Assembly: GCA_964496695.1 (NCBI GenBank)
Contig: CAZCBE010000002.1
Coordinates: 61,861-125,860 of the forward strand
Source: an uncultured Klebsiella sp.
GTDB taxonomy: Bacteria; Verrucomicrobiota; Verrucomicrobiia; Limisphaerales; SXTU01
DNA: 64,000 nucleotides
Direction: 5' to 3'
Positions 5,632 through 53,592 of the stretch are shown here, in pieces (positions within the stretch are counted from its first letter, which is position 1; every line of letters starts with the position of its first letter). A model generated the notes under the pieces. It had not been told where the DNA came from, searched no databases, and worked only from the letters and a program-made list of their open reading frames with translations. The translations under genes were made by a program, and so were the position numbers.

Positions 5632-6486
5632 ATGACCACGAACTCCGATGACGCCGCGCGTCGCGCCTACTGGGCCGAGCAGATGGAGCTGGGCTACGAG
5701 CTGGTCCAGCGCACGCTGCCCTTCGAGGTCCGCGAGTGCGGCGAGGGCTTCGCCTCCCTGCCCGATGCGGCCGCCGCAGCCGGCATCGAGATGCAGTTCT
5801 CCCAGTCCAAGATTGCCGGGGGTCTCGACCGCGTGTTCTTCATGCGCGAGCGCCTGGTCCGCGACGTGATGGCCGTGGGCCGGGCCATGAACGAGCGAGG
5901 CTGGGTTTTGAAGATCGAGGACGCCTACCGCTCGCTGGAGATGCAGGGCCAGCTCGTGCGCAAACCCGAGGTCTTCGACGCCGTGCTGCGCAAGTGCATC
6001 TGGGAAAATGGCGGCGTCATGCCGCCGGTCGAGTTCGTCGCCCGCCGCGCGCTCGTCATGGTCGCCAACGTCCCGAAGATTGGCACCCACATGTCCGGCT
6101 CGGCGATTGACGTGTCGGTCTTCCGTCGTGACGACGGTTCCGAGGTCTGGCGTGGCAACGCCTATTTGGAAATGAGCGAACGCACGCCGATGCGCTCACC
6201 GTTCATCGCGCCGGAGGACTTGCAGAACCGGCTCGAGATCACCGCGATGCTGGAGGCGCAGGGCTTCATCCATTTTCCGTTCGAGTTCTGGCATTTCAAC
6301 CAAGGCGACGCACTGGGTCACCTCGTCCGGGGCCTGCCCGCGCCCGCCCGCTACGGTGCGGTTCATTGGGATGCGAAGTCCAACCGCGTGACGCCGTGCG
6401 AAAATCCGCTCACGCCACTGAACCCGCTGGACGCCTTCGAGCGCGAAATCACGGCTGCCATGCGACGCGCTGAGGCGCAACGGTAA
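5632..6486 (+). CDS. M15 family zinc peptidase, VanX/DdpX-like (D-Ala-D-Ala dipeptidase fold)
   Basis: 284 aa. GTHMSGSAIDVSVF (H-x6-D zinc ligands) and FEFWHF (E-x-x-H) match the VanX-type motif order. Confidence 0.6.
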   Translation: MTTNSDDAARRAYWAEQMELGYELVQRTLPFEVRECGEGFASLPDAAAAAGIEMQFSQSKIAGGLDRVFFMRERLVRDVMAVGRAMNERGWVLKIEDAYRSLEMQGQLVRKPEVFDAVLRKCIWENGGVMPPVEFVARRALVMVANVPKIGTHMSGSAIDVSVFRRDDGSEVWRGNAYLEMSERTPMRSPFIAPEDLQNRLEITAMLEAQGFIHFPFEFWHFNQGDALGHLVRGLPAPARYGAVHWDAKSNRVTPCENPLTPLNPLDAFEREITAAMRRAEAQR

Positions 6487-6645
6487 CCATCGATGCGGAG
6501 GGGCACGGCCTTCAGGCCGCAGAAACGTGAGCACGCCGGGAGTGGTTCGAACGCAATTTTCCAGGCGCAGCCTTCTGCGGCGTGAACGCCGCGCGCCGCC
6601 CGCTGCCAGCGTGTTCGATGGTCTGCAGCGAGAGTTCGACCAGTG

Positions 6646-14601: not shown

Positions 14602-15933
14602 ATGAGCACCCATCGCTTCAACCGCCGCGCCTTCCTGCGCGGCGTCGGCGTCACCATGGCGCTGCCGTGGATGGAGTCCTTCAACGTGTGGGGCGATGAG
14701 CCGGGCAAGAGCAAGCCGGCCAGTGAGGCTCCGGTGCGGCTCGCGGTGCTGTTCTCCGGCAACGGCTTTCACTCGAAGGAATGGTGGGCCAAGGGCGAGG
14801 GCAAGGCGATGGAACTGGGCCGGGTGCTCGCGCCGCTGCATGACCTCCGCGAGAAGCTGACCTTCGTGCGCGGCCTGTATCACGAGGAGGCGCGCAAGGG
14901 GAACATCCACAGTTCGCAGACGGGCAACATGCTCTCGGGCGCGCCCATCGCATCAGGCGGGGAGATTCGGTCGGGCACGAGCTTTGACCAGTTGCTGGCG
15001 CAGACGTATGGGCGTTCGACGAAGGTGCCGAGTCTCGTGCTGGGCTGCGAGCACTCGAACCCGTCGGTGCATAAGAACTACTCGATGCTCTACAGCTCGC
15101 ACATCTCGTGGAGTTCACCCACCACGCCGACGCCGCTGGAGCTATATCCGGCGCTGGCGTTCGACCGGCTGTTCAAGGACGAGGCCACGCCCGGCGACAA
15201 GAGCGTGCTGGATGCGGTGCTGACGGACGCGCAGGACCTGCGCCGCAGCATCAGCAAGGGCGACCAGCGCAAGCTCGACGAGTATCTCGACTCGGTGCGT
15301 GACGTGGAGAAGCGCATTGAGAACGCCGGCAAGCGCGGCGAAGTGCAGGGCTGGCGGCCCACGCTTGACAAGCCCAATATCAAGCGTCCGGCCGACGGCA
15401 TCCCGCAGGATGTCGGCGAGCACATGCGGCTCATGTGCGATCTGCTGGTGCTGGGTTTCCAGACGGACACCACGCGCATCACGACGCTGAAGCTGAACAA
15501 CGACCACAGCGCGCTGCGCTTCCCGAACCTGCCCAGCGTGCAGCAGGCGGGCCACGGCATTGACTACATGATCCACCACCTGCTCTCGCACAGCGACGGC
15601 GAGGACTGGCTGAAGGTGAACCAGTTCTTCATGGAGCAGGTGGCGTATGTCGCGAAGAAGCTCGACGCGATTCAGGAAGGGCCGCGCACGCTGCTCGACA
15701 ACACGATGCTCATGCACTGTTCCAGCATGATGGCCGGGGCGAGACACGACAACGACCAGCTCCCGGTCATCGTCCTCGGCGGCGCCGGTGGCCGCCTCAA
15801 AGGCGGTCGCGCCCTCGATTACAAGGACAAGCCCGACCGCCAGCTCTGCCGGCTCTATCTCTCGATGATGGACAAGATGGCGGTGCGGCCAGCGAGCTTT
15901 GGCGATGGGAAGAAGCCGTTGGAGGAGGTCTGA
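14602..15933 (+). CDS. DUF1552 domain protein, Tat signal
   Basis: 443 aa. FNRRAFLRGVGVTMALPWMESF leader typical of DUF1552. Internal MIHHLLSHSD (HxxSHH-like). Directly follows the DUF1592-type gene. Confidence 0.85.
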   Translation: MSTHRFNRRAFLRGVGVTMALPWMESFNVWGDEPGKSKPASEAPVRLAVLFSGNGFHSKEWWAKGEGKAMELGRVLAPLHDLREKLTFVRGLYHEEARKGNIHSSQTGNMLSGAPIASGGEIRSGTSFDQLLAQTYGRSTKVPSLVLGCEHSNPSVHKNYSMLYSSHISWSSPTTPTPLELYPALAFDRLFKDEATPGDKSVLDAVLTDAQDLRRSISKGDQRKLDEYLDSVRDVEKRIENAGKRGEVQGWRPTLDKPNIKRPADGIPQDVGEHMRLMCDLLVLGFQTDTTRITTLKLNNDHSALRFPNLPSVQQAGHGIDYMIHHLLSHSDGEDWLKVNQFFMEQVAYVAKKLDAIQEGPRTLLDNTMLMHCSSMMAGARHDNDQLPVIVLGGAGGRLKGGRALDYKDKPDRQLCRLYLSMMDKMAVRPASFGDGKKPLEEV

Positions 15934-16019
15934 GGGCTTGCGCGTCTGACAAGCCAGTTCATCCGCTAAACCGGCCCGCGCGGACCGTCGCATCACCCTT
16001 TCTTCCAGGAAACCAACCG

Positions 16020-19000
16020 ATGAACCTTCTCTTCATCCTGCCTGTGGTCCTGCTCTTTTCCTTCGGCCAGCTTCGCGCTGCGGATGCCAGCGCAAGCGTT
16101 GCCATGGCGGAAAAACATCGTGCCTTGTTCAAGACGCATTGCGTCTCCTGTCATGGACCGGAGAAGCAGAAAGGCAAGTTCCGCGTGGATGATCTGCCCT
16201 TCACCCTCTCGAACATCGAGACGGCGGAGCGCTGGCAGAAGGTGCTCAACGCACTGAACTCCGGCGAGATGCCGCCGGAGGGCGAGCCGCCGCTGCCGAA
16301 TGCCGCGAAGGCTGATTTCCTCGATGATCTGGCGAACGTGATGGTGGCGGCACGGCGGAGCCTGAGCGATCAGAACGGCGTCATCACCATGCGGCGGCTC
16401 AACCGGCGAGAGTATCGGAACACGCTGCGCGAGCTGCTCGGGGTGGAGATCAACGTGGCGGAGCTGCCGTCGGACACGGGCACCGGCGGCTTTGACACGG
16501 CGGGCGTGAACCTGTTCATGTCGGCGAACCAGTTCGAGCAGTATCAATCGCTCGGACGCGAGGCGCTGGTGGAGGCCTTTGCCTGGCAGGCGGCGGCGGG
16601 CGAGGAGCGCAAGCTGCGCTACGAGGCGGAGAGTTCGCTCAAGGTCATCACCAAGAATTACCAGGAGAAGCTCGATGCGCTGGAGCGGGCGAAGCAGTGG
16701 GTGAAGGCCGTGGATGCAGCAGCGGCTCGCCCAGAGAACGCAAAGGTTGTGGCGGTGCTGCGGGCAGAGTCGAAGAGCGGCGACCTCTTCCGCCGGTCGT
16801 GGGCGAAGCTCAAGGGCGCGCCCGCGCCGGAGGATTTTGGCTTCCGAACGGTGGAGAACAACGCCGACAAGGCCAACGGTGCGCTGAGCTACGGAACACC
16901 GACCGGGGCGGGTTACATGCGGCCTTACCACGAACACTATCTGAAGCAGCCGCACCTGGACACGGGTGCCTATCTGACCATCATGGCCGGCAATGACCTT
17001 GGCAACGACGCGCTGAGCATCTACGTGCCGCCGAGCTGGCCGGTGGGGGATTACACGGTGCGCGTGCGCGTGGCGGCGACGCCGCAGGCTTCGCCGGAGC
17101 GGCGCTTCATCGAGTTCGGCATTCACCCGCGCAACGGGCAGGTGATGAGCACGCATGAGGTCACGGGCACGCTGGCCGCGCCGCAAATCATTGAGATTCC
17201 CCTCACGCTGACCAAGGGCAACCAGGACCGCGACAACCGCACGATCTTCATTCGCGAGAAGGGCAGCAACGATCACTACACCCAGACCCGCCTCATCTTT
17301 AACCAGGGCAAGGCAAAGAACGGGATCGGCCCGGAACTGGCACTGTGGGTGGACTGGGTGGAGGTCGAGCGCAAAACGAAAACCGCACCGGTGAGCGCTC
17401 CAGCGGTGGTGAAGTTCGGCATTGGTGACAACCGTCAGGTCGGCTCCGTTTCCGCAAAAGGGCTGACCGCCGTGCGCTTCGAGTGCGAGACCGCGAACGA
17501 GAAGGTGTCCAAGTATGTCGCCGGGCAGATTGATGCGCGGGACCGGGCGCAGCGCTGGGTGAAGGCGGTGGAGGAGGCCGCTGCACGGCCGGAGAACAAG
17601 GAGATTGTTGCTGAACTGAAGAAGAACTCGAAGAACGACGCCATCTTCCGCCGCTCATGGGACAAGCTCAAAGGCGCGCCCTCGCCCGAGTCGTTCGGCT
17701 TCAAGACGGAGGAGAACAACGCGGACAAGGCCAACAGCGCGCTCGGGGAGAACTGGCAGAAGTATCATGAGTATTACCTGCGGCAGCCTGGCCTCGACCG
17801 CGGCGCGTATCTCGGCACGCCCACGATGCACCCGGCGGTGATGGCGCTGGGCTTCCTGCAGTTGCCCGTGCCCGGCGAGTGGACCAGCGGCAACTACGTC
17901 TTTCGCGTGCGCCTGGCGGCGGCGAAGGACGCGCGGCCGGAGCAGCGCTTTCTCGAAGTGGGCATGCATCCGCGCAATGGCATGGTCCGCGCGACGTTCG
18001 AGGTTACGGGCACGATGGACCGGCCGCAGATCGTCGAAATGCCCTTCACGCTCACGCGTTCCCAGACTGATGCGGGTGATCGCACCCTGTTCATCCGTGA
18101 GAAAGGTGCCTGGGACAGCAACGAGGAAGGGGGACGCAAACGTGCGGAAGCGCTGAAGCGCAACGGCATCGGCCCCGAGGCCGTGCTATGGATTGACTAC
18201 ATGGAAATCGAGCGGCTCAGCGACGCCGTCCGCCCGCAGCCGCCCGGCCTGGCGGCGCTCGCTGGCCTCCCGGTGGATGATAAGACCAGTGCGCCGTCAT
18301 CCACCGAGGTGCAAGCGGCGCTCGCCCGTTTCGCCACGGTGGCGTTCCGCGGCACCGAACCGCCGGCGAGCTATCTGCAACGGCTCGCCAGCATCTACGA
18401 CACGCAGTTGAAGTCCGGCACGAAGCACAGCGTGGCGCTGCGGGAGACGCTCGCCGTGGTGTTGTCATCGCCCATGTTTCTCTATCTCGCCGAGCCGGCC
18501 GCCGATGAGAAGCGCCGTCCGCTTACCGGTCCCGAACTGGCCACGCGGCTTGCCTATTTTCTCTGGAGCGCGCCGCCGGATGAGACGCTGCTGGAGCTGG
18601 CCAGACGCGGCGAACTGGCGAAGCCCGAGGTGCTCGCCGCCGAGACCGCGCGGTTGCTGGATGACCCGCGTGCGCAGGACTTCGTGCGCGGCTTCCTGTT
18701 CCAGTGGCTGGGGATGGACCGGCTCGATTTCTTCGAGGTGAACCGCGCGAAATACCCGCGCTTCGATGACAGCACCCGGCTGGCCGCGAAGAACGAGGTG
18801 TATGAAACCTTTGCCCATGTCCTGCGGCACAACGCCCCGCTGCGCGATCTCCTCAAGTCCGACTATGTCGTCGTCAATCACCTGCTGGCGGACTTCTACG
18901 GCATTCCCGGCGTGAGCGGCGATGCCTACCAGAAGGTGTCGCTGCCCAAGGATTCACCGCGCGGCGGCCTGCTCGGCATGGCCGCCATCAACGTCATGGG

Positions 19001-28859: not shown

Positions 28860-29657
28860 CTACAGCTTGCGGAAAATCTTGGCGCGATGCTCTGAAAGGA
28901 ATGCCAAATCAGGTAACGCCGCATCATCGGGCAGCCACAACGGCTGGCCAGCATAAGCGCCAAAGTTCTCGGAGACTGAACGCTGAGAAAGTTCGAACTT
29001 CAACTTCGGCGAGAGCAGAAGTCGCAGTGTGTCGTCGAAAGCAATCAAGCCACGGTCAAATGCCGCATCGTGCAAGCGTGACAGGGACAAACCGTTGCGG
29101 ACATTAAGCCGCTCGGTGGGATGAGCACCCCAAGGTAAAATGTGCGATGCCACCAACAGCTCGCGAATTGCCAGCCCAGTTATGCCGCATCGTCCGCCGA
29201 AGTTGTTCAGCACCGCATCGCGAAAATACTCCTGTCCACGGCGCAGCTTTACGCTCGCTGTTGTTTCTGTAGGCCCAATCGGTGGGCGTTTGCAGACGCG
29301 GACACCTTCCTTCGGTAACACTTCAAGGTCGCTGCTTTCATCCACGTCGAACAGGTTTCGCAGAGCTTCCTCGCTCACTGGCACCGCCTCATTGAGGTTT
29401 TGGTGGAACTCGTTCCACACCGTCCGGTCGAGGGCACTTGCACCCTCAAGCCCTTTGATGCCGCGCAGCTTCAATGCAGGGTCCAGCGAAGCGAAGTTGC
29501 ACAGCTTCATGGCGACGCTGTTGGGACCACGTTCGAGCTTGTCTGCCAACGCCATAATCGCTGGGTGTCGCGCGTGAAGCTGACCGAAGGTCAGCTTGTG
29601 GTAGAGATTCAAGGTGACGAGCAATTCACCGTGGGTCCATCGTTTTCCGGCTGCCAT
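28860..29657 (-). CDS. HNH endonuclease (HNH_2 / COG3440-type predicted restriction endonuclease)
   Basis: Start taken at ATG 29657 (MAAGKRWTHGELLVTLNLY...). N-terminal ...GPNSVAMKLCNFASLDP... C-terminal RCGITGLAIRELLVASHILPW...NGLSLSRLHDAAFDRGLIAFDD is the H-N-H core. Confidence 0.8.
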   Translation of the reverse strand: MAAGKRWTHGELLVTLNLYHKLTFGQLHARHPAIMALADKLERGPNSVAMKLCNFASLDPALKLRGIKGLEGASALDRTVWNEFHQNLNEAVPVSEEALRNLFDVDESSDLEVLPKEGVRVCKRPPIGPTETTASVKLRRGQEYFRDAVLNNFGGRCGITGLAIRELLVASHILPWGAHPTERLNVRNGLSLSRLHDAAFDRGLIAFDDTLRLLLSPKLKFELSQRSVSENFGAYAGQPLWLPDDAALPDLAFLSEHRAKIFRKL

Positions 29658-29746
29658 GTTTTGACGGTGCCAGGTTCGCAGTGATGAGCGAAGGAGGAAA
29701 GTGCTTGCCGCCGAAAGCAAACCTGGCCAGGTAGTTCTGCCGAGCT

Positions 29747-30415
29747 ATGTCTAACGAATCTGAACTCGGCACTGAACCACTCGACCCCGCCGCTGTCTTC
29801 GCCTGTGCCCTTTCGCTGCGCGAGGCGTGCCTGAAGCGCGCGAAAACAAACCCGCAACTGAACTTGAGCGAGAACTACAACGGCATGGATCAGTTTTTGC
29901 GCGAGCTGATGCGAGTCGCCAATCTGTTCGAGGCATGGGCTTGTGCCCATGTTGAGTTCGAGGAGATGAGCGAGGTTTGGCCGTCTCTGATGGAGGACAA
30001 ATTCGGCGACGCTTGCCTGGAGTCCACGCTTCCGAGCGCGCTGGCTCAGTTCGATGATTCCGACTGCTTGCGGGTAGCACTCCGGTTGCGATTGCCCATA
30101 CAAGCAGACGATAAGCTTCGCGTGCCCATTGATGTTCGCGCACCCAATCCGATTGGGGGCTCGGATTTCCAAGCGTTTCGGATTCAAACCGTGCGCAATG
30201 AGCTTGATGAAGGCAATGCAGTTGCGTTCACCACCGATGATGACCCGTTCGATGAGGAGTTTGGGCCACCGTATTTCGCACTGTATGGCGTGGGCTATGA
30301 TGGATTGTCAGAACACATCGCCGACCGAAACACTTATTCAGATGCCTTGAGCCTTGCTCAGAAGCTTGCGCCCGGTGTGGCACTTCCACTCAAACCGATT
30401 TGTTTCACCACATGA
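29747..30415 (+). CDS. hypothetical acidic protein, no recognisable family
   Basis: 222-aa ORF divergent from the HNH gene (89-bp spacer). Rich in D/E (DDDPFDEEF, FDDSDC). More protein-like than the overlapping antisense ORF 29609-30187. Confidence 0.5.
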   Translation: MSNESELGTEPLDPAAVFACALSLREACLKRAKTNPQLNLSENYNGMDQFLRELMRVANLFEAWACAHVEFEEMSEVWPSLMEDKFGDACLESTLPSALAQFDDSDCLRVALRLRLPIQADDKLRVPIDVRAPNPIGGSDFQAFRIQTVRNELDEGNAVAFTTDDDPFDEEFGPPYFALYGVGYDGLSEHIADRNTYSDALSLAQKLAPGVALPLKPICFTT

Positions 30416-30552
30416 GCGACCGACGGTCTGTTTTGCAGTTGAAGGTTCAACGTTGAGCGTTGGAGGTTGGAAGTTCACCGTTCCTCACCACGCCTGACGT
30501 CTTCACCAAGGCCAAGGCTGTTGAGGCGCGTGGCCGGCCGGGACACCCCGCG

Positions 30553-30885
30553 TCATTTCTTGCCGGACTTGTGGCTGCGCGGTTGGTTGCCCCGCTCGGT
30601 CGTGCGACTCGTTGCGCGGGGAGCCGAGCGACGCGGTTCCTCGCGCCGGATCTCAGCGCGGCTGGGCTTGGCTTGGGAGACGGGGGCGGAGCTTCTGGTG
30701 GTGGCTGGTTGCTTAGCTTTCACGCCCTGACCATATCCCTCCTTCTTAAGCGGCACAACCGCCCGTTTGGCAAAGGTTGGAAGGAGCGGGAGAAGAACGG
30801 CGGTGATTTCGAGCCAATCACGACCGTGATGTTCGTCTCCCTCGTTCGGAAATTTCAGCTTCCACAGCGTCGCGTAAATGCTCAT
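30553..30885 (-). CDS. hypothetical small protein with basic, low-complexity C-terminus
   Basis: 110-aa ORF (MSIYATLWKLKFPNEGDEHHGRDWLEITA...). It sits between two copies of the vsr 5' end. It may be a gene fragment. Confidence 0.3.
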   Translation of the reverse strand: MSIYATLWKLKFPNEGDEHHGRDWLEITAVLLPLLPTFAKRAVVPLKKEGYGQGVKAKQPATTRSSAPVSQAKPSRAEIRREEPRRSAPRATSRTTERGNQPRSHKSGKK

Positions 30886-30946
30886 GGATTATGCGTAGCG
30901 TTTCGCCGTTGTTTCGACGAGCGGGCAACTTGCCAACCATCACGCG

Positions 30947-31522
30947 ATGCCAGATGTCTTCACCAAGGCCAAACGGTCGGCGGTCATGGCGCGCATCCGG
31001 TCGCGGGGGAACCAGGCGACGGAGCTGGTGCTGGTGCGGGTGTTCCGCGCGCATGGGATCACGGGGTGGAGGAGGCATCTGAAGTTGAGAGTGGCGGAGT
31101 TGAGAGTTGAGCGTCGGAAGCGGGTGCGTTCGTCCGCGCTCGGCGGCTCTCAACCCTCAACTTTCAACCCTCAACTCACCGTTCGTCCTGACTTCGTGTT
31201 TCCCAAGCTGCGGGTGGCGGTGTTTGTGGACGGGTGCTTCTGGCATGCGTGTCCGCAGCACGCGACGCAGCCCAAGGGGAATGCGGCGTTCTGGCGCGCG
31301 AAGCTGGCGCGGAATCAGGCGCGGGACCGGCTGGTGACGCGGACGTTGCGGCGGGCGGGGTGGCGGGTGCTGCGGCTCTGGGAGCATGAGCTGGCCCGGA
31401 AGCGTGCGGCGCGGTTGGTGGCGCGGTTGCGGCGGGTGTTGGCGGGTGTGCCTGCGAAACCCGCACAGACAGCGACACCTCACCCCAACCCCTCTCCCCG
31501 GTCGAGGCGGAGAGGGGCCTGA
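30947..31522 (+). CDS. vsr: very-short-patch repair endonuclease (Vsr) carrying an in-frame repeat insertion and a repeat-derived tail
   Basis: MPDVFTKAKRSAVMARIRSRGNQATE... then RPDFVFPKLRVAVFVDGCFWHACP...FWRAKLARNQARDR...GWRVLRLWEHEL matches E. coli Vsr block by block (...SKNMRAI...PDFVV...IFTHGCFWH...FW..K...N..RD...GWRVL.VWE). Confidence 0.8.
   Translation: MPDVFTKAKRSAVMARIRSRGNQATELVLVRVFRAHGITGWRRHLKLRVAELRVERRKRVRSSALGGSQPSTFNPQLTVRPDFVFPKLRVAVFVDGCFWHACPQHATQPKGNAAFWRAKLARNQARDRLVTRTLRRAGWRVLRLWEHELARKRAARLVARLRRVLAGVPAKPAQTATPHPNPSPRSRRRGA
31083..31183. repeat. about 96-nt GTTGAGAG/CTCAACCC-type palindromic repeat inside vsr
   Basis: Encodes RVAELRVERRKRVRSSALGGSQPSTFNPQLTV between the Vsr N-terminal helix and the PDFVF catalytic block. 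The arms GAGTTGAGAGTTGAG / CTCAACCCTCAACT(T/C) are imperfect complements. A related unit lies at 30440-30480. Confidence 0.7.
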
Positions 31523-32885: not shown

Positions 32886-33101
32886 GAAATTCCAAACTTC
32901 AAGGTTCAAGCTCCAAAGAAATCCCAAACCTCAAATTCCAATCGTTCAGCGCGCCTCGCAGCCAGCCCTTCCGCCCAGGTTGGCACCTTGATTAAAGGGC
33001 TGGGATGGTGCGGCTTGTCCGCCCAGGGCCAGGCCACGCTTTCCCTTGGAATTTGGACCTTGGAGTTTCTTTGGAAGTTGGAACTTGGGATTTGGAGCTT
33101 C
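32886..33101. repeat. imperfect inverted repeat of CCAAA/CTCCAAAGAAA-rich ~55-nt arms
   Basis: 32886-32941 (..TTCAAGCTCCAAAGAAATCCCAAACCTCAAATTCCAA) pairs with 33046-33101 (TTGGAATTTGGACCTTGGAGTTTCTTTGGAAGTTGG...). Identity is about 80% over the inner 35 nt. Confidence 0.8.
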
Positions 33102-33229
33102 TTCCACCCGCCATTCCACTGAAAACAGCGGGGAGCCTTAAAGGTTCCTCGCTGTTTTCGGTGGAAGGAGGCTGCGCGGTGGTTGGCTGCGCCAAGCTCA
33201 CCGGAGACGCGCGCCGGGCGTGCATTAGT

Positions 33230-33429
33230 CCCGGAGGGCCGTCCGACAATAGCCCAGCGATTCATCGCTGGGTTGAGCCGGGGCCGCTGGCCAGTCCCGC
33301 AGGGACGAAAGAGCTTCTCCACGCGGGATGCCCACGAAGAGCCATTCTGCCGTCCCTCCGGGACTCCCCATCATTGCCGCCACAGCTTCCAGCGATGAAT
33401 CGCTGGGCTATTCTCTGTCGCCCTCCGGG
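33230..33429. repeat. two inverted copies of a repeat centred on the hairpin CCCAGCGAttcaTCGCTGGG
   Basis: Hairpins at 33253-33272 and 33389-33407. The flanks CCCGGAGGGC..GACA..ATAGCCCAGCGA are shared in opposite orientation. Confidence 0.8.
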
Positions 33430-33585
33430 CTGAACCCAAGGCCATGCCATCGGAAACTGCGGAGCCCCGGGATTTTTCTGACCCCATGTTTCTGACTTCC
33501 GTGCTTATGAGGCATGCCTCCGCACTACGGAGGTTTGGATCGCCAAGGAACTGCGTCGCATGAATAAAAAAGTCCAGAAAAAATG

Positions 33586-33613
33586 TTGACTCTTTTCCGC
33601 TGCGGCATAGTTT
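33586..33613 (+). promoter_or_regulatory. sigma70-like promoter (TTGACT-N16-TAGTTT) with an A-rich upstream tract
   Basis: TTGACT at 33586-33591 and TAGTTT at 33608-33613, preceded by GAATAAAAAAGTCCAGAAAAAATG. It is the only good promoter match I can see upstream of tRNA-Thr/tuf. Confidence 0.45.
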
Positions 33614-33654
33614 GTGCGCCCGGTTCACAACAACCGTCAGCAAGCTTGAAAGCA

Positions 33655-33704
33655 CATCGGCCCGGTTGCAGCAGCAGGGCAAACAGGGCCGATGGGTTTT
33701 TTTT
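33655..33704 (+). terminator. intrinsic-terminator-like hairpin plus T8
   Basis: CATCGGCCC (33655-33663) pairs with GGGCCGATG (33686-33694) around a 22-nt loop, followed by GG and TTTTTTTT (33697-33704). Confidence 0.55.
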
Positions 33705-33747
33705 CCCCTGACGGGGAGATTTGGATCGGACGGGTGAAAGTAATTTC

Positions 33748-33823
<76 letters not shown>

Positions 33824-33889
33824 GATTTTAGGCCGGTCGGCAACGGTCGGACATAGCAGCAGAGTCAACCACTAACTAGAACATCGCAA

Positions 33890-35089
33890 ATGGCAAAAGA
33901 AGCCTTCAAACGGACGAAACCCCACGTGAACGTCGGCACCATCGGCCACGTTGACCACGGCAAATCCACCCTCACGGCCTGCATCGTGGCCGTGCAGAAC
34001 CGCAAGGGCCTGGCACCCGCAATTTCCTACGCCGACATCACCAAGGGCGGCACGGTGCGCGACGAGTCCAAGACCGTGACCATCGCGGCCTCGCACGTCG
34101 AATACGAGTCCGACCTGCGCCACTACGCGCACGTGGACTGCCCCGGCCACGCTGACTACGTCAAGAACATGATCACCGGCGCCGCCCAGATGGACGGCGC
34201 GATCCTGGTCGTGTCCGCCGCGGACGGCCCGATGCCGCAGACGCGCGAGCACATCCTCCTGGCCCGCCAGGTCGGCGTGCCCGCCATCGTCGTCTTCCTG
34301 AACAAGGTGGACCTCGTGGACGACGCGGAACTGCTCGACCTCGTCGAGATGGAAATCCGCGACCTCCTGACGAAGTATCAGTTCCCCGGTGACAAGACCC
34401 CGATCATCCGGGGCAGTGCCACCGCCGCCATGGCCGGCAAGCCGGAAGGCGAGAAGGCCGTGCAGGACCTGCTCACCGCGATTGACACGTTCATCCCGGA
34501 GCCCGTGCGCGAGATCGACAAGCCGTTCCTCATGTGCATCGAGGACGTGTTCAACATCGAAGGTCGCGGCACCGTCGTGACCGGTCGTGTGGAGCGCGGC
34601 ATCCTCAAGAAGATGGACGAAGTCGAAATCGTCGGCATCAAGGACACGCGCAAGACCACGGCGACGGACATCGAAATGTTCCGCAAGCTCCTCGACGAAG
34701 CCCGCTCGGGTGAAAACGTCGGTGTGCTGCTCCGCGGCACGAAGAAGGAAGAAGTCGAGCGCGGCATGGTGCTGGCCAAGCCGGGCAGCATCAAGCCCTA
34801 CACGAAGTTCAAGGCCGAGGTTTACGTCCTCACCAAGGACGAGGGTGGCCGCCACACGCCGTTCTTCAACAAGTATCGTCCCCAGTTCTACTTCCGCACC
34901 TCGGACGTGACCGGCAATGTCACGCTCCCGGCCGGAGTGGAAATGGTGATGCCCGGCGACAACGTCTCCGTGGACATCGAACTCATCGTCGGTGTCGCCA
35001 TGGAAAAGGGCCAGCGCTTCGCGATCCGCGAAGGTGGCCGCACCATCGGCGCCGGCCGCGTGAGCGACATCATCGCGACCGTCGCTTAA
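33890..35089 (+). CDS. tuf: elongation factor Tu
   Basis: 399 aa. [30 protein letters not shown]..., [34 protein letters not shown]. Confidence 0.98.
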
Positions 35090-42655: not shown

Positions 42656-46795
<4,140 letters not shown>

Positions 46796-46911: not shown

Positions 46912-47310
46912 ATGCCGACCATCAATCAACTCGTCCGTAAGGGCCGTAACAAGATTCGTTACAAGTCCAAATCCCCGGCGCTCGAAGGCGCGTCCTTCCG
47001 CCGCGGGGTGTGTGTGCAGGTCATGACCCGCACGCCTAAAAAGCCGAACTCCGCGCTCCGCAAGGTCGCGAAGGTCCGCCTCACCAACGGCTATGAGATC
47101 ATCGCCTACATCCCGGATGAAGGCCATAATCTCCAGGAGCACTCCATCGTGCTCGTGCGTGGCGGCCGCGTGAAAGATCTTCCCGGCGTGCGCTATCACA
47201 TCGTCCGCGGCACCTTCGACGCCGCCGGCGTCGAGAAGCGCCGGGTCAGCCGTTCCAAGTATGGCGTGAAACGCCCGAAGGCCGCCAAGGCCGGCGAAGC
47301 CAAGAAGTAA
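46912..47310 (+). CDS. rpsL: 30S ribosomal protein S12
   Basis: 132 aa. [12 protein letters not shown]..., [33 protein letters not shown]. Confidence 0.98.
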
Positions 47311-47333: not shown

Positions 47334-47807
47334 ATGTCCCGTCGCCGCCAAGCCAACAAACGCCAGATCATCGCCGATGGCCGCTTTAACAGCGTGCTCG
47401 TCGGACGCCTCGTCAACACCGTCATGCAGTGCGGCAAGAAGAGCGTCGCCCAGCGCATCGTTTACGGTGCCTTCGACTCCCTTGCCGAGAAGGTGCCTGA
47501 CGCCAGCCCGGTGGACGTCCTCCAGCGCGCCGTGGACAACGCCAAGCCGCGCCTTGAGGTCAAGCCCCGCCGCGTCGGTGGCGCCACCTACCAGGTGCCG
47601 CTCGAAGTGCCGGCCGACCGCCAGGCCTCGCTCGCCGTCCGCTGGATCGTGAGCTTCGCCGACGGCCGCAAGGGCATCCCCATGAGCCAGGCGCTCGCCG
47701 CCGAGATCATGGACGCCTATCAAGGGCAGGGGAACGCCATCCGCAAGCGCGACGAAGTCCACAAGACCGCGCAGGCGAACAAGGCCTTCGCGCACTTCCG
47801 CTGGTAG
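47334..47807 (+). CDS. rpsG: 30S ribosomal protein S7
   Basis: 157 aa. ...[19 protein letters not shown]..., [10 protein letters not shown]. Confidence 0.97.
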
Positions 47808-47883: not shown

Positions 47884-50106
47884 ATGAGCACCCTCGTTGA
47901 AAACAAGGCCGTCAATTCGCCGCACCGGCAATACACGCTGGAGCGCACGCGCAACATCGGCATCGCCGCGCACATTGACGCCGGCAAGACGACCACCACC
48001 GAGCGCATCCTGTTTTACACCGGCCTGATCCACAAGATCGGTGACGTGGATGACGGCAACACCGTGACGGACTGGATGGAGCAGGAACGCGAACGCGGCA
48101 TCACGATCACCTCCGCCGCCGTCACCTGCTTCTGGACGCAGAAGTGCGCGAAGGCGGGCGAGGACAAGGTTTACAAGGCCTTCAACAACATCCCGCACCG
48201 CATCAACATCATTGACACCCCCGGCCACGTGGACTTCACCGCCGAGGTGGAGCGCTCCATGCGCGTGCTGGACGGCGCGGTCGCCGTGTTCTGCGGCGTC
48301 GCCGGCGTGCAGCCGCAGTCCGAGACGGTCTGGCGGCAGGCGACCAAATACAAGGTCCCGCGCATCGCGTTTGTGAACAAGATGGACCGCATCGGCGCGA
48401 ACTTTGAGAACGCGCTGAACGACATGCGCACCAAGCTGCGCGCGTATGCGTTCCCGATCTTCCTGCCCCTCGGTGCCGGCCCGACCGAGGCCGAAGGCAA
48501 GACCGTTGTCGGCGGCTTTGAAGGCGTGATTGACGTGGTCAATCAGAAGGCCATCAACTGGGGCCCGACCGAGGCCAATGAAGGCCTGAACTACGACGTC
48601 ACGGACATTCCCGCCGAGCATCTGGAGCGCGCCCAGGCCGCGCTTGCCGAGTTGATTGACGCCGTCTCCAACAAGGACGACGAGATCGCCAACCTCGTGC
48701 TCGAAGAGAAGCCGATTGCCCCCGAGGTGCTCAAGGCCGCCATCCGCCGCCTCACCTGCAAGATCGAGATCATCCCCGTCCTCTGCGGCTCCGCCTTCAA
48801 GAAAAAGGGCGTGCAGGTCCTCGTGGATGCCGTCGTGGATTACCTCCCGTCGCCGCTGGACATTCCTCCCGCCCAAGGCCACGAGCCGGGCACGGACAAC
48901 CAGGTGGCCGTGCCGACGGACGACAACCAGAAGTTCTGCTCGCTCGCGTTCAAGCTCTGGACCGACCCCTACGCGGGCAAGCTGGTGTTCTTCCGCGTCT
49001 ATTCCGGCCACCTCAAGAAGGGTGACAACATTTACAACCCGCGCACGCGCCGTCGCGAGCGCGTCAGCCGCCTGATGGTCATTCAAGGCAGCGAGCGCAA
49101 GGACATCGACGAGGTCTATGCCGGTGACATCGCCGCGCTCGTCGGCCTGCGCAACATCACCACCGGTGACACGATCTGCAACGAGGACTTCGACGTGGCC
49201 CTGGAGCCGCCGACCTTCCCCGAGCCCGTCATCAGCATGGCCGTCGAGCCGAAGACCAAGCAGGACCGCGACAAGATGTCCGAGGGCCTGCAGCGCCTCG
49301 CCGAGGAAGACCCGACCTTCCACTGCTTCACCAACGAGGAGACCGGCCAGCGCATCATCGCGGGCATGGGCGAGCTCCACCTGGAAATCATCATTGACCG
49401 CCTCAAGCGCGAGTTCAAGGTCGAGGCCAACTCCGGCGCGCCGCAGATCGCCTACCGCGAGACCATCACGAAGGCCGCCGAGGGCGAGGGCAAGTTCATC
49501 CGCCAGTCCGGTGGTCGCGGTCAATACGGCCACGCCTGCATCACCCTGGAGCCCAATGAAAAGGGCAAGGGCGTCGAGATCGAGAACAAGATCGTCGGCG
49601 GCACCATCCCGAAGGAATACGTCCCGGCCGTCATCAACGGCATCGAGGAGGCCTGCCGCACCGGTGTGTATGCCGGCTACCAGGTCATTGACGTGAAGAT
49701 CGCCGTGACCGACGGCTCCTTCCACGAAGTGGACTCCAACGAGCTCGCCTTCAAGATGGCCGGCATCTTCGCGCTCAAGGACGCCTTCAAGTCCGCCGGC
49801 CCGATCATCCTCGAGCCCATCATGAAGGTCGAGGTCACCACGCCTGACGAGTATCAGGGCGACCTCCTGGGCGACATCAACCGCCGCCGCGGCATCATCC
49901 ACGCCGTGGAGGCCAAGAGCGGCCAGACCGTCCTGAACGCGCATGTGCCGCTGGCCGAGATGTTCGGCTACGCCACGGCCATCCGCTCCCTCTCGAAGGG
50001 CCGCGCGAGCTACAGCATGGAGCCGCACACCTTCGAGCAGGTGCCGCAGCAGATCGCGCAGCAGATCCTCGAGGTCTCGGCCAAGAAGCCCGCCGCGCGC
50101 ACGTAG
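47884..50106 (+). CDS. fusA: elongation factor G
   Basis: Start at ATG 47884 ([43 protein letters not shown]...). [24 protein letters not shown]. 740 aa. Confidence 0.97.
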
Positions 50107-50125
50107 GCCATTCAGTCTTCACCAA

Positions 50126-50158
50126 GCCCGCCGGCCGCAAGGCCGGCGGGCTTTTTGT
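50126..50158 (+). terminator. intrinsic terminator of the str operon
   Basis: GCCCGCCGGCC gcaa GGCCGGCGGGC perfect stem followed by TTTTTGTT. Confidence 0.85.
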
Positions 50159-50574
50159 TGGGGTGGTCTTACGGCCGTGAGGTATGCGGCATGCAAACCC
50201 GCAGAGGGAATCATGGCGAAGGTAGGGCGTGGCTCGTCCCGTGCGCGTCCGCTTAGTTCAGCGGCGCGCTGTTGAGGTGCAGTGACCGGATTAACGAGAC
50301 GGGCGTGATGGCCACTGTCTCCGGCGGCGCGGAGCGTCTGGAGTGCGGCGTGTTCCACCGCCGCTTTTGGGCTGGGCGCACGATGAGGGCGGCGAGTTTG
50401 CCAACGCCCTGGCACGAGGAAAAGCGGTGCTGAAAGACACCGCACTACAGACGCTGGCGCGACTTCCACTCTCTCGGGTTCCCGCGAATGTTGTGGGATC
50501 ACCGGGTGCAAAAGATTGGGATGCATCCTATTCCGGCCACTTTCAATAAAGGATCTTGCACCCAGGCAACGGAT

Positions 50575-51003
50575 ATGGATCGGATCACCTGCATGAAGCA
50601 AAACAAAATAAGTTCCCGAGAAATATTCAAAGAAATTGGCACAGTCCGTTGGACCAATAACCATTCGTTTGAAGTCCGGACAAAGTTCACCGCGCGATTG
50701 TTTCTAAGTCCTAACACTGATCCGGATACAGGCCCGCCAACACAAGTCATTGTCGATGAGGTATTCGTTCCTAAGCGATTTAGAAGACGTGGTAACGCTA
50801 CCAAGGCAATGACTGCGCTTTGTCGCCTCGCGGATAAGTATCAATTCAGCCTAGAAGGCGGACCTGTTGGCGGGAATATCGGCGAATGGAGCAAAAAGTT
50901 TGCGGAGTGGGTGCTGAGCTTCGGCTTTGTTCGCAATAGGTCAACGGACGTGACCACCGACGACCCGGCAGCGTTCTATGTGGTGCGAAGGCCACGAAAG
51001 TAA
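50575..51003 (+). CDS. small GNAT-like acetyltransferase-fold protein (hypothetical)
   Basis: 142 aa from ATG 50575 (alternative start 50593). VIVDEVFVPKRFRRRGNATKAMTALCRLADKYQFSLEG resembles GNAT motif A (R-x-x-G-x-A). Lies in a lower-GC region. The upstream part of ORF 50488 is repeat-derived. Confidence 0.45.
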   Translation: MDRITCMKQNKISSREIFKEIGTVRWTNNHSFEVRTKFTARLFLSPNTDPDTGPPTQVIVDEVFVPKRFRRRGNATKAMTALCRLADKYQFSLEGGPVGGNIGEWSKKFAEWVLSFGFVRNRSTDVTTDDPAAFYVVRRPRK

Positions 51004-51086
51004 TGTCATTTCATTCATCTGTTCTACGCTTGCAAGGCGCAACATGCTTACTTGCTGTAGCTTTCAACCTAAATTTCCATCAATAC

Positions 51087-51115
51087 TTGAAGGTGGTTCG
51101 AGTCGGTGATGTAAT
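51087..51115 (+). promoter_or_regulatory. promoter TTGAAG-N17-TGTAAT ending 8 nt before the DpnI-like ATG
   Basis: Hexamers at 51087-51092 and 51110-51115. This predicts a leaderless or near-leaderless transcript for 51124. Confidence 0.4.
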
Positions 51116-51123
51116 CGCCAGAA

Positions 51124-51891
51124 ATGAACCTCACAATGGGTAGTGAGATGGCGGCACTTTACAAAAGTGCCGCCCAGCGCGCCCGCGTTGTGACTGAGTC
51201 ATGGGGGGAACACAATCTATATTGCCCGAACTGTCCTTCACCGAAACTGTCTCGACTAAGCCATAACGCCAAAGCGAACGACTTCGCCTGTCCCGACTGC
51301 AAATTCTGGTATCAGCTCAAAGGTCAACAATCGCGAATTGGGAACTCGGTCCCGGATGGGGCATACCAAACTATGCTGGACGCGATTCGAGAGGGCGAGA
51401 CGCCGAATTTTTACTTCATGCACTATGATCTCGCGACATGGAGTATAAAGAACTTACTGCTGGTTCCGCATTTCGCCTTTCCACCTTCAGCCATTATCTA
51501 GCGTAAACCGCTCGCTGTTACGGCGCGCCGTGCCGGCTGGATTGGTTGCAACATTGCGTTGAACCATATACCTGTTGAAGCGCGAATTGTCGTTGTAGCG
51601 GAAAGCAAGGTTCTGCCGGAGGATGAAGTGCGCGCACAGTTCCGGCGCGTGAAGCCGCTCGGTGAAATCAAGGCCAAGGAACGAAGCTGGACACTCGATG
51701 TGTTGAACGCAATTCGCACGCTTTGCAAAGTGGAATTCACCAATGACGACGCATATACACTCGTCCCCCACTTGGCGAAATTGCATCCCGGTAACCGTCA
51801 TGTTCGCGATAAGATTCGCCAGCGACTTCAAGTCCTCCGGGATGCAGGCCTGTTAACTCATGTGGGGCGCGGCCAATGGCGGCTTCCATGA
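51124..51891 (+). pseudogene. DpnI-family (Dam-replacing/DpnI, PF06044-like) methyl-directed restriction endonuclease interrupted by one in-frame TAG
   Basis: ORFs 51124-51501 and 51559-51891 share a frame. Joined across TAG 51499-51501 they give 255 codons colinear with DpnI: YKSAAQRARVVTESW, YCPNC, DFACPDC, DGAYQTM, PNFYFM, II*RKPLAVTARRAGWIGCNIAL, KIRQRLQVLRDAG. Confidence 0.85.
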
Positions 51892-52355
51892 ATTCATCTG
51901 GGAATCGGCGTGGAGTTCTCGCACCCGGAGAGGTAAGGTCGGCCCCCGGCCTGGGCAGGGCGCGATTCGCACGAAAGAGGAGACCCTCATGAACCTGCGG
52001 GAACCAAGATTCTTTGAGGGCGTCGGATGCAATCCCTTCGGGCATATGCCTTCGGCGCGGATTTCTGGTCCCGCCGCTTGGGATGCGGCTTTGTTCGCTG
52101 AAGGCTTGCGCCGCGACGATTCAGGCATCCGGTGGGATCGATCCCTTATTTCTGCGGGGGATCAAGAGCGGTTTTGCTGTTTCGCGATGGGATCACGAGC
52201 GTCCAGGCACATTTCCGACGGTTTGCGCACTCGTGCGTCTGTTAAGACTGTGTGACAGCCAAATTGTTTGAGGTCATGGAAGATGGTTTTCCTACGAAAA
52301 CAGGCCGTTTTTGCGGGTCCCTCGGCCTTCCCGGTAAAAAAGTTTCTAAAAGGTG

Positions 52356-52383
52356 TTGCACGGAAAATGCATCCTGCTATTTT
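52356..52383 (+). promoter_or_regulatory. candidate S10-operon promoter (TTGCAC-N16-TATTTT)
   Basis: Hexamers at 52356-52361 and 52378-52383, preceded by the A/T-rich GGTAAAAAAGTTTCTAAAAGG. Confidence 0.4.
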
Positions 52384-52507
52384 GCCCGCCCTTTCGTCGG
52401 GTGAACACGGCGAGGGTAAAACGAAAAACACAGTGACTTGCAGTCAGACAATTCGTGAATTGAAGAGCGCGCTGGGCCGACTCGTGGAGTCGGCGTGGGT
52501 GCGCGAG

Positions 52508-52532
52508 GGCGCGGACCGCGCCTAGGTTTTTT
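52508..52532 (+). terminator. terminator-like hairpin plus T6 in the S10 leader (candidate attenuator)
   Basis: GGCGCG gac CGCGCC (52508-52522), then TAGG and TTTTTT (52527-52532), 17 nt before the rpsJ ATG. The upstream hairpin GCCGACTC gtg GAGTCGGC is also present. Confidence 0.45.
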
Positions 52533-52548
52533 AACACTTGTTCTTTGT

Positions 52549-52857
52549 ATGGCTGGACAACGCATTCGCATTCGCCTCAAGGCTTACGACCACCGGGTCA
52601 TCGACCAGTCGGCCCACGACATCGTCGAGACGGTCAAGCGCAGCGGCGCCAAGGTCGCCGGCCCGATCCCCCTTCCCACCCGCATCGAGCGCCTCACGGT
52701 GCTCCGCTCTCCCCACGCCGACAAGAAATCGCAGGAAACGTTTGAGCAGCGCACGCACAAGCGACTGCTGGACATCCTCGACCCCACGGCCAAGACCGTG
52801 GACGAGTTGAAAAAGCTCAACCTCCCGGCGGGGGTTGACATCACCATTAAGATCTAA
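52549..52857 (+). CDS. rpsJ: 30S ribosomal protein S10
   Basis: Start at ATG 52549. [44 protein letters not shown]... Confidence 0.97.
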
Positions 52858-52863
52858 CTTCCT

Positions 52864-53592
52864 ATGATTGGCTTGCTCGGAAAAAAACTCGGCCACACGC
52901 GCGTCTATGACGCCAGCGGGAATGCCATCGCCGTGACGGTGGTGCTCGCCGGGCCGAACCGCGTCCTCCAGGTCAAGGCCAAGGAGGGCAAGGACGGCTA
53001 CAATGCGGTGCAGCTCGGTTTCGACGACCAGAAGGCGCAGCGCCTGTCGAAGGCCGAACTCGGGCACATCACCAAGCACAAGGGCGCGCCGGTGAAGCGC
53101 ATCAAGGAATTCCGCGACTTCACCCTGACGGTCAAGCCGGGTGACGTGGTCGGACCGGATATTTTCGCCGTCGGTGACTTCGTGGATGCCATCGGCACCA
53201 CCAAGGGCCGCGGCTTCGAGGGTGTCGTGGCCCGCTGGGCGTTCGCCGGTGGCGACGCCACGCACGGCTGCAAAGGCTGGAAACGCCGCTCGGGCGCCAT
53301 CGGCCAGCGCCTCTTCCCCGGCACAGTCATGCGGGGCATGAAGATGCCCGGTCACATGGGCCAGCAGCGCCGCACCACGCAGAACCTGGAAGTCATCCAG
53401 GTGCGCAAGGACGACAACCTGCTGCTCATCAAGGGCTCGATTCCCGGCTCCGAGGGCGATTACGTCGTCATCCGCGAAGCCAAGAAGTATCCGATCGTGC
53501 AGGCCCGCAAGGACCGCGAGGAAGCGGCCAAGAAGGCCAAGGAACGCGCCGAGGCAGACGCCAAGGGCAAGAAGGACGCCAAGAAGAAGTAA
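52864..53592 (+). CDS. rplC: 50S ribosomal protein L3 (Lys/Glu-rich C-terminal extension)
   Basis: 242 aa. MIGLLGKKLGHTRVYD..., TKGRGFEGVVARW..., PGHMGQQRRTTQNLEV. Confidence 0.97.
   Translation: MIGLLGKKLGHTRVYDASGNAIAVTVVLAGPNRVLQVKAKEGKDGYNAVQLGFDDQKAQRLSKAELGHITKHKGAPVKRIKEFRDFTLTVKPGDVVGPDIFAVGDFVDAIGTTKGRGFEGVVARWAFAGGDATHGCKGWKRRSGAIGQRLFPGTVMRGMKMPGHMGQQRRTTQNLEVIQVRKDDNLLLIKGSIPGSEGDYVVIREAKKYPIVQARKDREEAAKKAKERAEADAKGKKDAKKK

Follow-up and report, generated by a model that had tools for sequence, protein, structure and literature searches.

What brings restriction-type genes into the space between the str and S10 ribosomal operons of a bacterial chromosome? The question is raised by a 64-kb stretch of DNA (the window, in whose coordinates all positions are given; L-numbers denote the contigs and loci compared with it) from an uncultured member of the Verrucomicrobiia, whose elongation factor EF-G is 85-87% identical to those of Verrucomicrobiia, subdivision-3 and Limisphaerales metagenome-assembled genomes (MAGs). 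In this window the gap from the end of fusA at 50106 to the start of rpsJ at 52549 measures 2442 bp, whereas it is at most 190 nucleotides (nt) in 36 of 37 other loci of the PVC group, mostly Verrucomicrobiota; in L013 a subtilase gene lies inside the gap. The initial annotation was right that the gap is atypically long and devoid of tuf, since tuf lies upstream of the str genes, at 33890-35089, and therefore does not follow fusA. We consider it probable that this gap holds a horizontally acquired, decaying fragment of a restriction-modification (R-M) islet, one that probably provides no working defence in this genome. The features on which this reading depends, with the two conserved flanks, are as follows.

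47884-50106, plus strand: fusA (EF-G), last gene of the str operon and left conserved flank
50575-51003, plus strand: X, a small, intact GNAT-fold gene of 136-142 amino acids (alternative start at 50593)
51124-51891, plus strand: DpnI-family (type IIM, methyl-directed) endonuclease pseudogene, full length with one stop
51499-51501, plus strand: in-frame TAG at codon 126, the sole lesion in the DpnI gene
51853-52195, minus strand: Dam-family (D12) adenine methyltransferase remnant, comprising a gene remnant (51853-52128) and its upstream region
52549-52857, plus strand: rpsJ (S10), first gene of the S10 operon and right conserved flank

The DpnI-family pseudogene and the GNAT-like open reading frame (ORF) reported earlier are both present. 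The nuclease gene matches the Pfam families DpnI (PF06044; 132.5 bits against a cut-off of 26.7, E = 1.8e-38) and DpnI_C, the winged helix (PF17726; 75.3 bits against a cut-off of 23, E = 4.2e-21), covers positions 1-253 of 256 of the PADLOC family mREase_II (methyl-directed restriction endonuclease; E = 4e-74), and aligns over residues 3-253 of R.DpnI (PDB 4ESJ; E = 1.8e-57), with which it shares the same two-domain architecture (PDB 4ESJ/4KYW; PMC3424567, PMC4117772). In R.DpnI the catalytic residues are E25, D53, E64 and K66, accompanied by a four-cysteine zinc site (PMC3424567); R126 contacts a guanine, and L129, R135, W138 and G140 form the methyl-binding cleft (PMC4117772). The window gene retains E25, D53, K66 and the four zinc cysteines, and it encodes R126, L129, R135, W138 and G140 as well, but downstream of the TAG, which lies just 5' of this recognition loop and of the winged-helix domain. 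Unlike R.DpnI, it has Q for E64 and a stop at codon 126, and its activity and specificity are predicted from sequence. The Q is found in 120 of the 120 nearest homologues (P0017-P0136; D53-Q64-x-K66), and the characterised Gm6ATC-dependent enzymes, DpnI and Drg of Neisseria gonorrhoeae, have E at this position. Because PD-QXK is a named catalytic-domain motif of Mrr (PMC11037411), Q64 need not mean lost activity. A search of plasmid records for annotated DpnI contexts gave two N. gonorrhoeae matches only, both unannotated at the site.

In L087 (GCA_964578245.1), which is collinear with the window over 49390-52423 at 96.9% identity, the DpnI gene is intact and 98% identical, with AAG (Lys) at codon 126, and K is the majority residue at this position among 122 aligned sequences. 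The same TAG is present in L002, an independent assembly from another sequencing run that is 100% identical to the window. Between the window and L087, the nuclease genes differ by 10 synonymous and three amino-acid changes, which argues for purifying selection on the DpnI gene.

Beyond this gene, about 450 bp had been set down as lacking a convincing gene, and here the remnant of the Dam-family methyltransferase was recognised. Its parts are about 12 codons of the 3' end lying beyond the DpnI stop, about 23 codons of the 5' end and the upstream region; about 836 nt of the interior are deleted, and 136 nt stand in their place. Positions 52058-52195 match the methyltransferase 5' end and upstream region of L104 (73% identity, E = 9e-14, blastn), L088 also matches, and at the other end homology to the L088 DpnI locus continues for 30 nt past the DpnI stop, to 51921. 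A 91-amino-acid ORF in the remnant matches the L088 methyltransferase with its C-terminal 24 residues (E = 6e-4), and its N-terminus is identical to that protein at nine of 17 positions, a score equalled by 18 of 2000 shuffles; the ORF is not conserved, having a 1-nt insertion in L087 at 51990. The L088 protein itself belongs to the Dam family (TIGR00571, 238 bits). Both the FxGxG motif, which binds S-adenosylmethionine, and the catalytic DPPY motif are absent from the remnant. As L087 shares the interior deletion, this deletion predates the split between the window and L087.

Homologous cassettes occur in unrelated genomic contexts, on contigs of 52-59% G+C content (GC) whose DpnI genes, at 47-53%, resemble the window copy, and two types of islet can be told apart. 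Type A (L094, L101-103, L116-118) consists of a PLD-family nuclease, X, an NmeDI_C-type nuclease and then a Dam-family methyltransferase, and type B (L095, L104/105, L119, a JGI contig and the window) of X, DpnI and a facing methyltransferase gene; L088 is of type B without X. The sequence of L116 at 6219-7156 aligns with L088 at 10756-11695, starting from the last base of the DpnI stop codon, and this alignment limit indicates that DpnI took the place of the NmeDI_C-type nuclease gene and of the final 14 methyltransferase codons. In pairs of the L088 type the two genes converge, their 3' ends overlapping by 39 nt. Beside DpnI, the methyltransferase is decayed to different degrees: the last 13 residues are replaced in L088 and L095, the L096 gene is truncated past the SNS motif, the DPPY motif is missing in L119, 74 N-terminal codons are left in L104/105, and scraps only survive in the window and L087. 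The L116-L118 islet lies among toxin-antitoxin genes and an AIPR gene, beside an adenosylhomocysteinase gene fragment.

This series resembles the DpnI-like PD-(D/E)XK-wH genes reported beside frameshifted methyltransferase genes and interpreted as 'avoidance of genomic conflict' (PMC11037411), in that the neighbouring adenine methyltransferase is inactivated and the methyl-dependent nuclease gene is kept. Unlike those frameshifts, the present case offers a deletion series across lineages and an exact breakpoint at the DpnI stop codon. The methyltransferase would have been lost because a nuclease cutting Gm6ATC could not coexist with a methyltransferase making it. Judging from homology and from its persistence without a working partner methyltransferase in L087, L104/105 and L119, the intact nuclease most likely attacked incoming Dam-methylated DNA on its own.

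The pairing of the two genes could also be read as the remnant of a conventional type II R-M system, in which the Q64 enzyme would cut unmethylated DNA, the adjacent adenine methyltransferase would shield the host, loss of the methyltransferase would turn it into a toxic nuclease, and the TAG would follow. The Q64-clade DpnI gene directly adjoins a Dam-family D12 methyltransferase gene in L088-L093, L095, L096-L100 and L119, and in L113/L114 a nuclease gene of the clade adjoins an apparently intact beta-class N6_N4 methyltransferase gene; such proximity to adenine methyltransferases of two unrelated classes is the usual signature of a cognate pair, and Q stands for the catalytic E64 in all 121 clade members. 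However, the L087 nuclease is intact and under purifying selection although its methyltransferase had already been destroyed, the nuclease is likewise intact beside the truncated methyltransferases of L104/L105 and L119, and the breakpoint shows DpnI taking the place of another nuclease gene and clipping the methyltransferase. The conservation of the methyl-binding L129, R135, W138 and G140 (PMC4117772), the PADLOC class and the naming of PD-QXK as an Mrr motif (PMC11037411) speak against it too, and we regard a conventional system as unlikely.

The second gene of the cassette, X, was described before as GNAT-like from its sequence. It reaches Pfam Acetyltransf_1 at 14.4 bits only (E = 0.047), below the gathering cut-off of 20.7, and has no match in NCBIfam, PADLOC or PHROG. 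Its AlphaFold2 model is confident (predicted local distance difference test 85.6, predicted template-modelling score 0.80), and the top Foldseek matches in PDB and BFVD are all GNAT acetyltransferases (E down to 2e-4 and 3e-7, template-modelling scores of about 0.5-0.64). The family alignment shows an invariant R-x-x-G-x-A motif, in which R71 and G73 are invariant and the last position is small (A or G) in 16 of 16 members. Going by the model, X has the GNAT fold with an R/Q-x-x-G-x-G/A motif for binding coenzyme A, acyl transfer being predicted only, and since helices alpha1 and alpha2 are missing it is a minimal GNAT. The family comprises 52 clusters in 5.8 billion proteins, and its members lie in an R-M islet in every context retrieved; the closest homologue, 81% identical, is in an unrelated context. 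A relationship to DpnD was considered and rejected, as comparison through the Pfam family gave no DpnD/PcfM match at E <= 1. In L087, X carries a TAAG duplication that causes a frameshift, and its substitutions fall 3:3:3 by codon position. The cassette gene that was lost thus differs between the window and L087, as would be expected if selection no longer acts on the cassette as a unit.

It might be argued that the cassette still functions here, with the TAG read through or the two halves (a 125-amino-acid catalytic core and a 110-amino-acid winged-helix ORF starting at 51559) cooperating, and with X and the nuclease expressed as a module by read-through from fusA. The gene has one lesion only and is otherwise 98% identical to an intact copy, X is intact, the same TAG is fixed in two assemblies, and the isolated winged-helix domain of R.DpnI binds Gm6ATC alone (PMC3424567). 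Nevertheless, the stop strips the guanine- and methyl-reading loop R126-G140 from the catalytic fragment (PMC4117772), the downstream ORF would have to begin at TTG and lacks an obvious ribosome-binding site, the scanned region contains no suppressor tRNA, fusA is closed by a strong terminator, and the loss of X from the sister lineage is what relaxed selection would produce. A working cassette is very unlikely on these grounds.

That the cargo is foreign, as had been proposed, is indicated by its composition, its absence from close relatives and the homologous cassettes in unrelated contexts. The initial annotation described a lower-GC island of 2.4 kb; this held for the core at 50541-51891 (1351 nt), with 51.1% GC against a window mean of 63.2% (standard deviation 2.7% for windows of the same size; z = -4.5), and failed for the left part, 50161-50540, which is host-like at 63.7%, so that the low GC is limited to about 1.4-1.7 kb of the gap. 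A sliding-window and k-mer analysis, the check suggested at that time, marked the core as the lowest-GC and most deviant stretch of the 64 kb: two of 1253 sliding windows of core size are equally low in GC, both overlapping the core, and in tetranucleotide content the core lies farthest from the remainder of the window. The GC at third codon positions (GC3) is 0.52 in X and 0.57 in the DpnI gene, compared with 0.80-0.92 in rpoC, rpsL, rpsG, fusA, rpsJ, rplC, rplD and rplB. The observed/expected ratio of GATC (0.76 in the host, 1.17 in the island) is uninformative on methylation status.

These data bear directly on the idea that the low-GC genes are native and vertically inherited with an odd composition, or else that the junction is a chimera of metagenomic assembly. 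In favour of this idea, Verrucomicrobiota MAGs commonly carry DpnI-family genes, and the window derives from metagenome-type data. Against this, both junctions recur in three independent assemblies, and the collinearity of L087 and the identity of L002 mean that they are not assembly artefacts; the genes are absent from relatives with an identical S10 protein; GC3 lies 30-35 points under that of the neighbours; and the closest homologues of X (81% identical) and of the DpnI gene (80-86% identical) are in unrelated contexts. This explanation is already largely refuted, and we regard it as extremely improbable.

The distribution of the cargo among relatives shows how variable this site is. The island is absent from L003/L004 and L005/L006, whose S10 protein is 100% identical to that of the window, and from the more distant clade members L106-L112, where other DNA occupies the site; relatives sharing these genes with host-like composition were not encountered in the comparison. 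Different DNA lies between the fusA terminator and the S10 promoter in L003/L004, L005/L006, L109 and L112, and other DNA lies upstream of the S10 promoter in L106, L108 and L111. In L003/L004 and L112 this is a host-like ORF of about 170 amino acids (L003 219-728, L112 7774-8313; GC3 about 0.8) with no Pfam, NCBIfam or PHROG match, which may be an older occupant of the site; L109 has an unrelated 180-amino-acid ORF on the opposite strand, L005 a different lower-GC sequence, and in L108 and L111 the S10 promoter is preceded by other genes over more than 3 kb. There are hence at least five different contents at the site (window/L087; L003/L004/L112; L109; L005; L108; L111), and among the six contigs with an identical S10 protein, those extending upstream of the common promoter have three different contents. 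On the left, homology with the island-free relatives stops at 50156-50161. On the right it begins again at 52278-52336, specifically at 52278 in L005/L006 and L112 and at 52325-52336 in L003 and others.

Though the initial annotation held that the insertion had split the two operons, the signals that separate them are found without it. They are listed here with the adjoining spacer.

50124-50158, plus strand: intrinsic terminator of the str operon, with a perfect 13-bp stem, GCAA loop and T-run
52196-52325, no strand assigned: spacer without assignment, in which the variable region reaches its right limit (between 52278 and 52325)
52356-52383, plus strand: S10-operon promoter candidate, TTGCAC (52356-52361), 16 nt, TATTTT (52378-52383)
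52385-52548, plus strand: S10 leader, about 165 nt long, whose secondary structure is conserved and includes a terminator-like hairpin (52507-52523) followed by a U-run

The terminator previously noted after the end of fusA at 50106 is borne out, its pair G50134-C50143 being A-T in L087, a compensatory change, and it also stands in the island-free L003, L109 and L112, which are all the island-free contigs that include the fusA end. The promoter candidate proposed at 52356 is likewise upheld: it matches the E. coli -35 consensus at three of six positions, below the consensus-scan threshold, and is invariant in the window and 10 related contigs. Promoter and leader are common to all ten island-free relatives (L003-L006, L106-L112). 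Since terminator, promoter and leader exist in island-free relatives, the operon split predates the island.

Again, the junction was portrayed as part of the most conserved gene neighbourhood of a bacterial chromosome, which does not hold in this order, given the variable contents above and the finding that in five relatives of 77-85% EF-G identity no S10 operon was present within the 4-10 kb after fusA, up to the contig ends. There, fusA is followed by uvrA and RNase II (L009), yajC-secDF (L010), a two-component system and an EcoRV-type R-M pair (L011), or other genes (L014, L015). As the junction is unstable in this order, cargo there is less surprising. In L011 (85% EF-G identity) the pair, an EcoRV-type endonuclease (Pfam E = 7.5e-103) with a Dam-family methyltransferase, lies at 14605-16394, 2.4 kb beyond fusA, so that restriction genes occur independently here too, close to where the str operon ends.

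With regard to the route of entry, the search recommended for integrase or att remnants gave nothing in the gap: we found no integrase, transposase or recombinase ORF or Pfam match, no prophage (PHROG) match, no tRNA or transfer-messenger RNA (tmRNA) target, no att repeats and no flanking direct repeats of 12 nt or more. An integrase-borne genomic island or prophage remnant was accordingly rejected. With integrase, transposase, tRNA target and flanking direct repeat all missing, entry and turnover most likely proceeded by recombination through the conserved flanks, by analogy with the minimal mobile elements of Neisseria and the pneumococcal dpn cassette.

The restriction cargo, called unusual for this position, indeed follows a pattern already described in these two systems, its closest analogues (PMC4269198, PMC4471560). 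The dam-replacing gene of Neisseria (drg/drp) at the leuS/dam locus is a cassette resembling a minimal mobile element (PMC4269198, PMC516771), which has low GC and lies in dam or truncates it between conserved flanks (PMC4269198). Both loci have a DpnI-family gene of lower GC than the host (40.5% against 52% there; 53.5% against 63% here), conserved flanking genes, no mobility genes of their own, an associated truncated dam-family methyltransferase gene and alternating contents (there between strains). Unlike the Neisseria locus, the window has fusA and the S10 operon as flanks instead of leuS, a nuclease with Q for E64 that is itself now a pseudogene, a GNAT-fold gene in the cassette, and a methyltransferase that arrived with the cassette and was not resident at the site; an intact dam allele was not encountered at the fusA-rpsJ junction, and Correia-type repeats were not found.

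The DpnI (dpnC-dpnD)/DpnII cassette locus of Streptococcus pneumoniae (PMC4471560, PMC3812788) is similar in having alternating contents at one syntenic site with conserved flanks (there alternative restriction cassettes), and in combining a methyl-directed nuclease gene with a second small gene, that of dpn being of unknown function; in islet types A and B, too, the nuclease gene next to the Dam-family methyltransferase gene is either methyl-directed or of another kind. It differs in that X shows no detectable Pfam DpnD/PcfM similarity and precedes the nuclease gene instead of following it, that the alternative contents of our junction are unrelated ORFs and not a DpnII system, and that the host of the window is not known as naturally transformable.

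Putting these observations together, we arrive at the following history. The str and S10 operons were already apart in the ancestor of the clade, with a terminator, promoter and structured leader of their own, and the space between them turned into a variable site whose cargo differs by lineage. A segment spanning at least 50542-52195 then entered with X, the DpnI-family gene and the convergent Dam-family methyltransferase gene, as homology and composition indicate, by a route that we infer. According to the comparison of islets, DpnI took the place of the NmeDI_C-type nuclease gene, clipping the last 14 methyltransferase codons, and the methyltransferase beside it has eroded to varying degrees by lineage. 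Its interior was lost while the window and L087 still had a common ancestor. The DpnI gene remained under purifying selection afterwards, presumably because its methyl-directed nuclease could by itself counter phage or other foreign DNA bearing Dam methylation. Finally, an A-to-T change in the window lineage turned codon 126 into TAG, with loss of the recognition loop and winged helix, and in the sister lineage X was frameshifted instead.

One segment of the gap stands apart from this history.

50161-50541, no strand assigned: GC-rich (63.7%) spacer with a long imperfect hairpin, arms 50333-50368 and 50420-50455

The 'repeat debris' reported for 50160-50560 was not found: searches for tandem, multi-copy and flanking direct repeats gave a single imperfect 36-nt inverted repeat, with arms 83% alike, and the segment has no copy elsewhere and no Rfam, Pfam or PHROG match. 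Relative to shuffled controls, the minus strand is predicted to fold strongly, with z-scores of -4.5 (window) and -4.3 (L087); the plus strand scores -0.9. The stretch 50161-50487 has seven differences from L087 in 327 sites and the methyltransferase remnant has 27 in 386 (p = 0.0024, Fisher test), and of the substitutions mapped on the fold, one preserves a pair of the long hairpin and another closes a mismatch there. Just upstream of X, at 50494-50547, seven differences from L087 fall within 54 nt (13%), with flanking segments at about 2%.

Several candidates for this segment were rejected. Neither a remnant of the PLD-family nuclease nor one of the L003/L112 'Y' ORF gave anything significant (tblastn and profile hidden Markov models in six frames; best E = 0.07); as to coding potential, the L087 substitution pattern over 50161-50574 matches no reading frame; and an attC-like site lacks its RYYYAAC/GTTRRRY ends, the hairpin being judged by eye. 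A 181-amino-acid ORF on the minus strand has no Pfam or PHROG match and a 68-amino-acid ORF on the plus strand no PHROG match, and a search with all Rfam families on both strands of 49900-52900 (E <= 1) returned terminator look-alikes only.

It is conceivable that X, the Dam-family methyltransferase, the PLD-family nuclease and an exchangeable nuclease of DpnI or NmeDI_C type form an uncharacterised defence islet and that, in addition, 50161-50541 encodes a new non-coding RNA at a hot spot; taken jointly, we consider this rather unlikely. If it were true, X would work together with the other components, for instance by acetylating or regulating the nuclease or the methyltransferase, the swap of nucleases would flip the target between unmethylated and methylated DNA as a verrucomicrobial counterpart of the pneumococcal DpnI/DpnII switch, and DpnI beside a near-intact methyltransferase would represent regulated coexistence and not decay.

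Certain points weigh against our preferred reading of the gap as a decaying, acquired R-M islet fragment. The conserved and structured segment 50161-50541 is left unexplained by it. The near-full-length methyltransferases of L088 and L095, or the intact beta-class ones of L113/L114, would fit a conventional R-M pair, and for the intact methyltransferase of L113/L114 the conflict model gives no explanation. The specificity of the methyltransferase is putative, and that of the nuclease for Gm6ATC is predicted from homology only, with Q in place of E64. The selection estimates are based on only 9-14 substitutions, the entry mechanism is deduced from absent mobility genes, and neither an empty site nor a donor was found among the compared loci. 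X, moreover, is intact in the window and could still be expressed.

The genes and signals around the gap complete the description. Before fusA, whose differences from L087 fall 1:1:14 by codon position, the following genes were placed.

42656-46795: rpoC
46912-47310: rpsL
47334-47807: rpsG

Downstream of rpsJ come rplC, rplD, rplW and rplB, then further genes. In the S10 leader, 42 pairs are predicted, three of them with compensatory double changes (RNAalifold, eight distinct sequences), and 26 nt separate the end of the terminator-like hairpin with its U-run from the start codon of rpsJ, a layout resembling the L4-controlled S10 attenuator of E. coli. The leader has no Rfam match and is specific to the clade (window, L003, L005, L006, L106-L112), being absent from more distant relatives with fused or short fusA-rpsJ junctions.

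Elsewhere in the window, GTAC is missing altogether from the roughly 62 kb that surround the island, where a Markov model predicts 65 occurrences, and the island lacks it too; CTAG was counted seven times in the same 62 kb, compared with 31 expected. So extreme a shortage of GTAC suggests prolonged exposure to a restriction system specific for this sequence. At 29001-31000 and 33001-34000 the GC is also somewhat lower (57-58%) and the tetranucleotide distance raised, the latter stretch lying directly upstream of tuf; Pfam gave no match for the ORFs at 29140-29577, 29747-30415 and 30460-31110.

In summary, the locus is a tidy example of a known process, which leaves current understanding unchanged and introduces no new principle, and it extends known patterns to a new phylum. 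It provides a natural example, outside the pathogens from which the process is known, of a methyl-directed nuclease that displaces another nuclease gene and erodes the adjoining Dam-family methyltransferase, with an exact replacement breakpoint and successive stages of decay across lineages. A small GNAT-fold family is flagged whose members sit only in R-M islets in every context retrieved. The usually tight fusA-rpsJ junction is a site of gene turnover in one verrucomicrobial clade, complete with terminator, promoter and structured leader, and its conserved flanks, as anticipated in the initial annotation, are usable as a landmark for tracking gene flow in uncultured populations.

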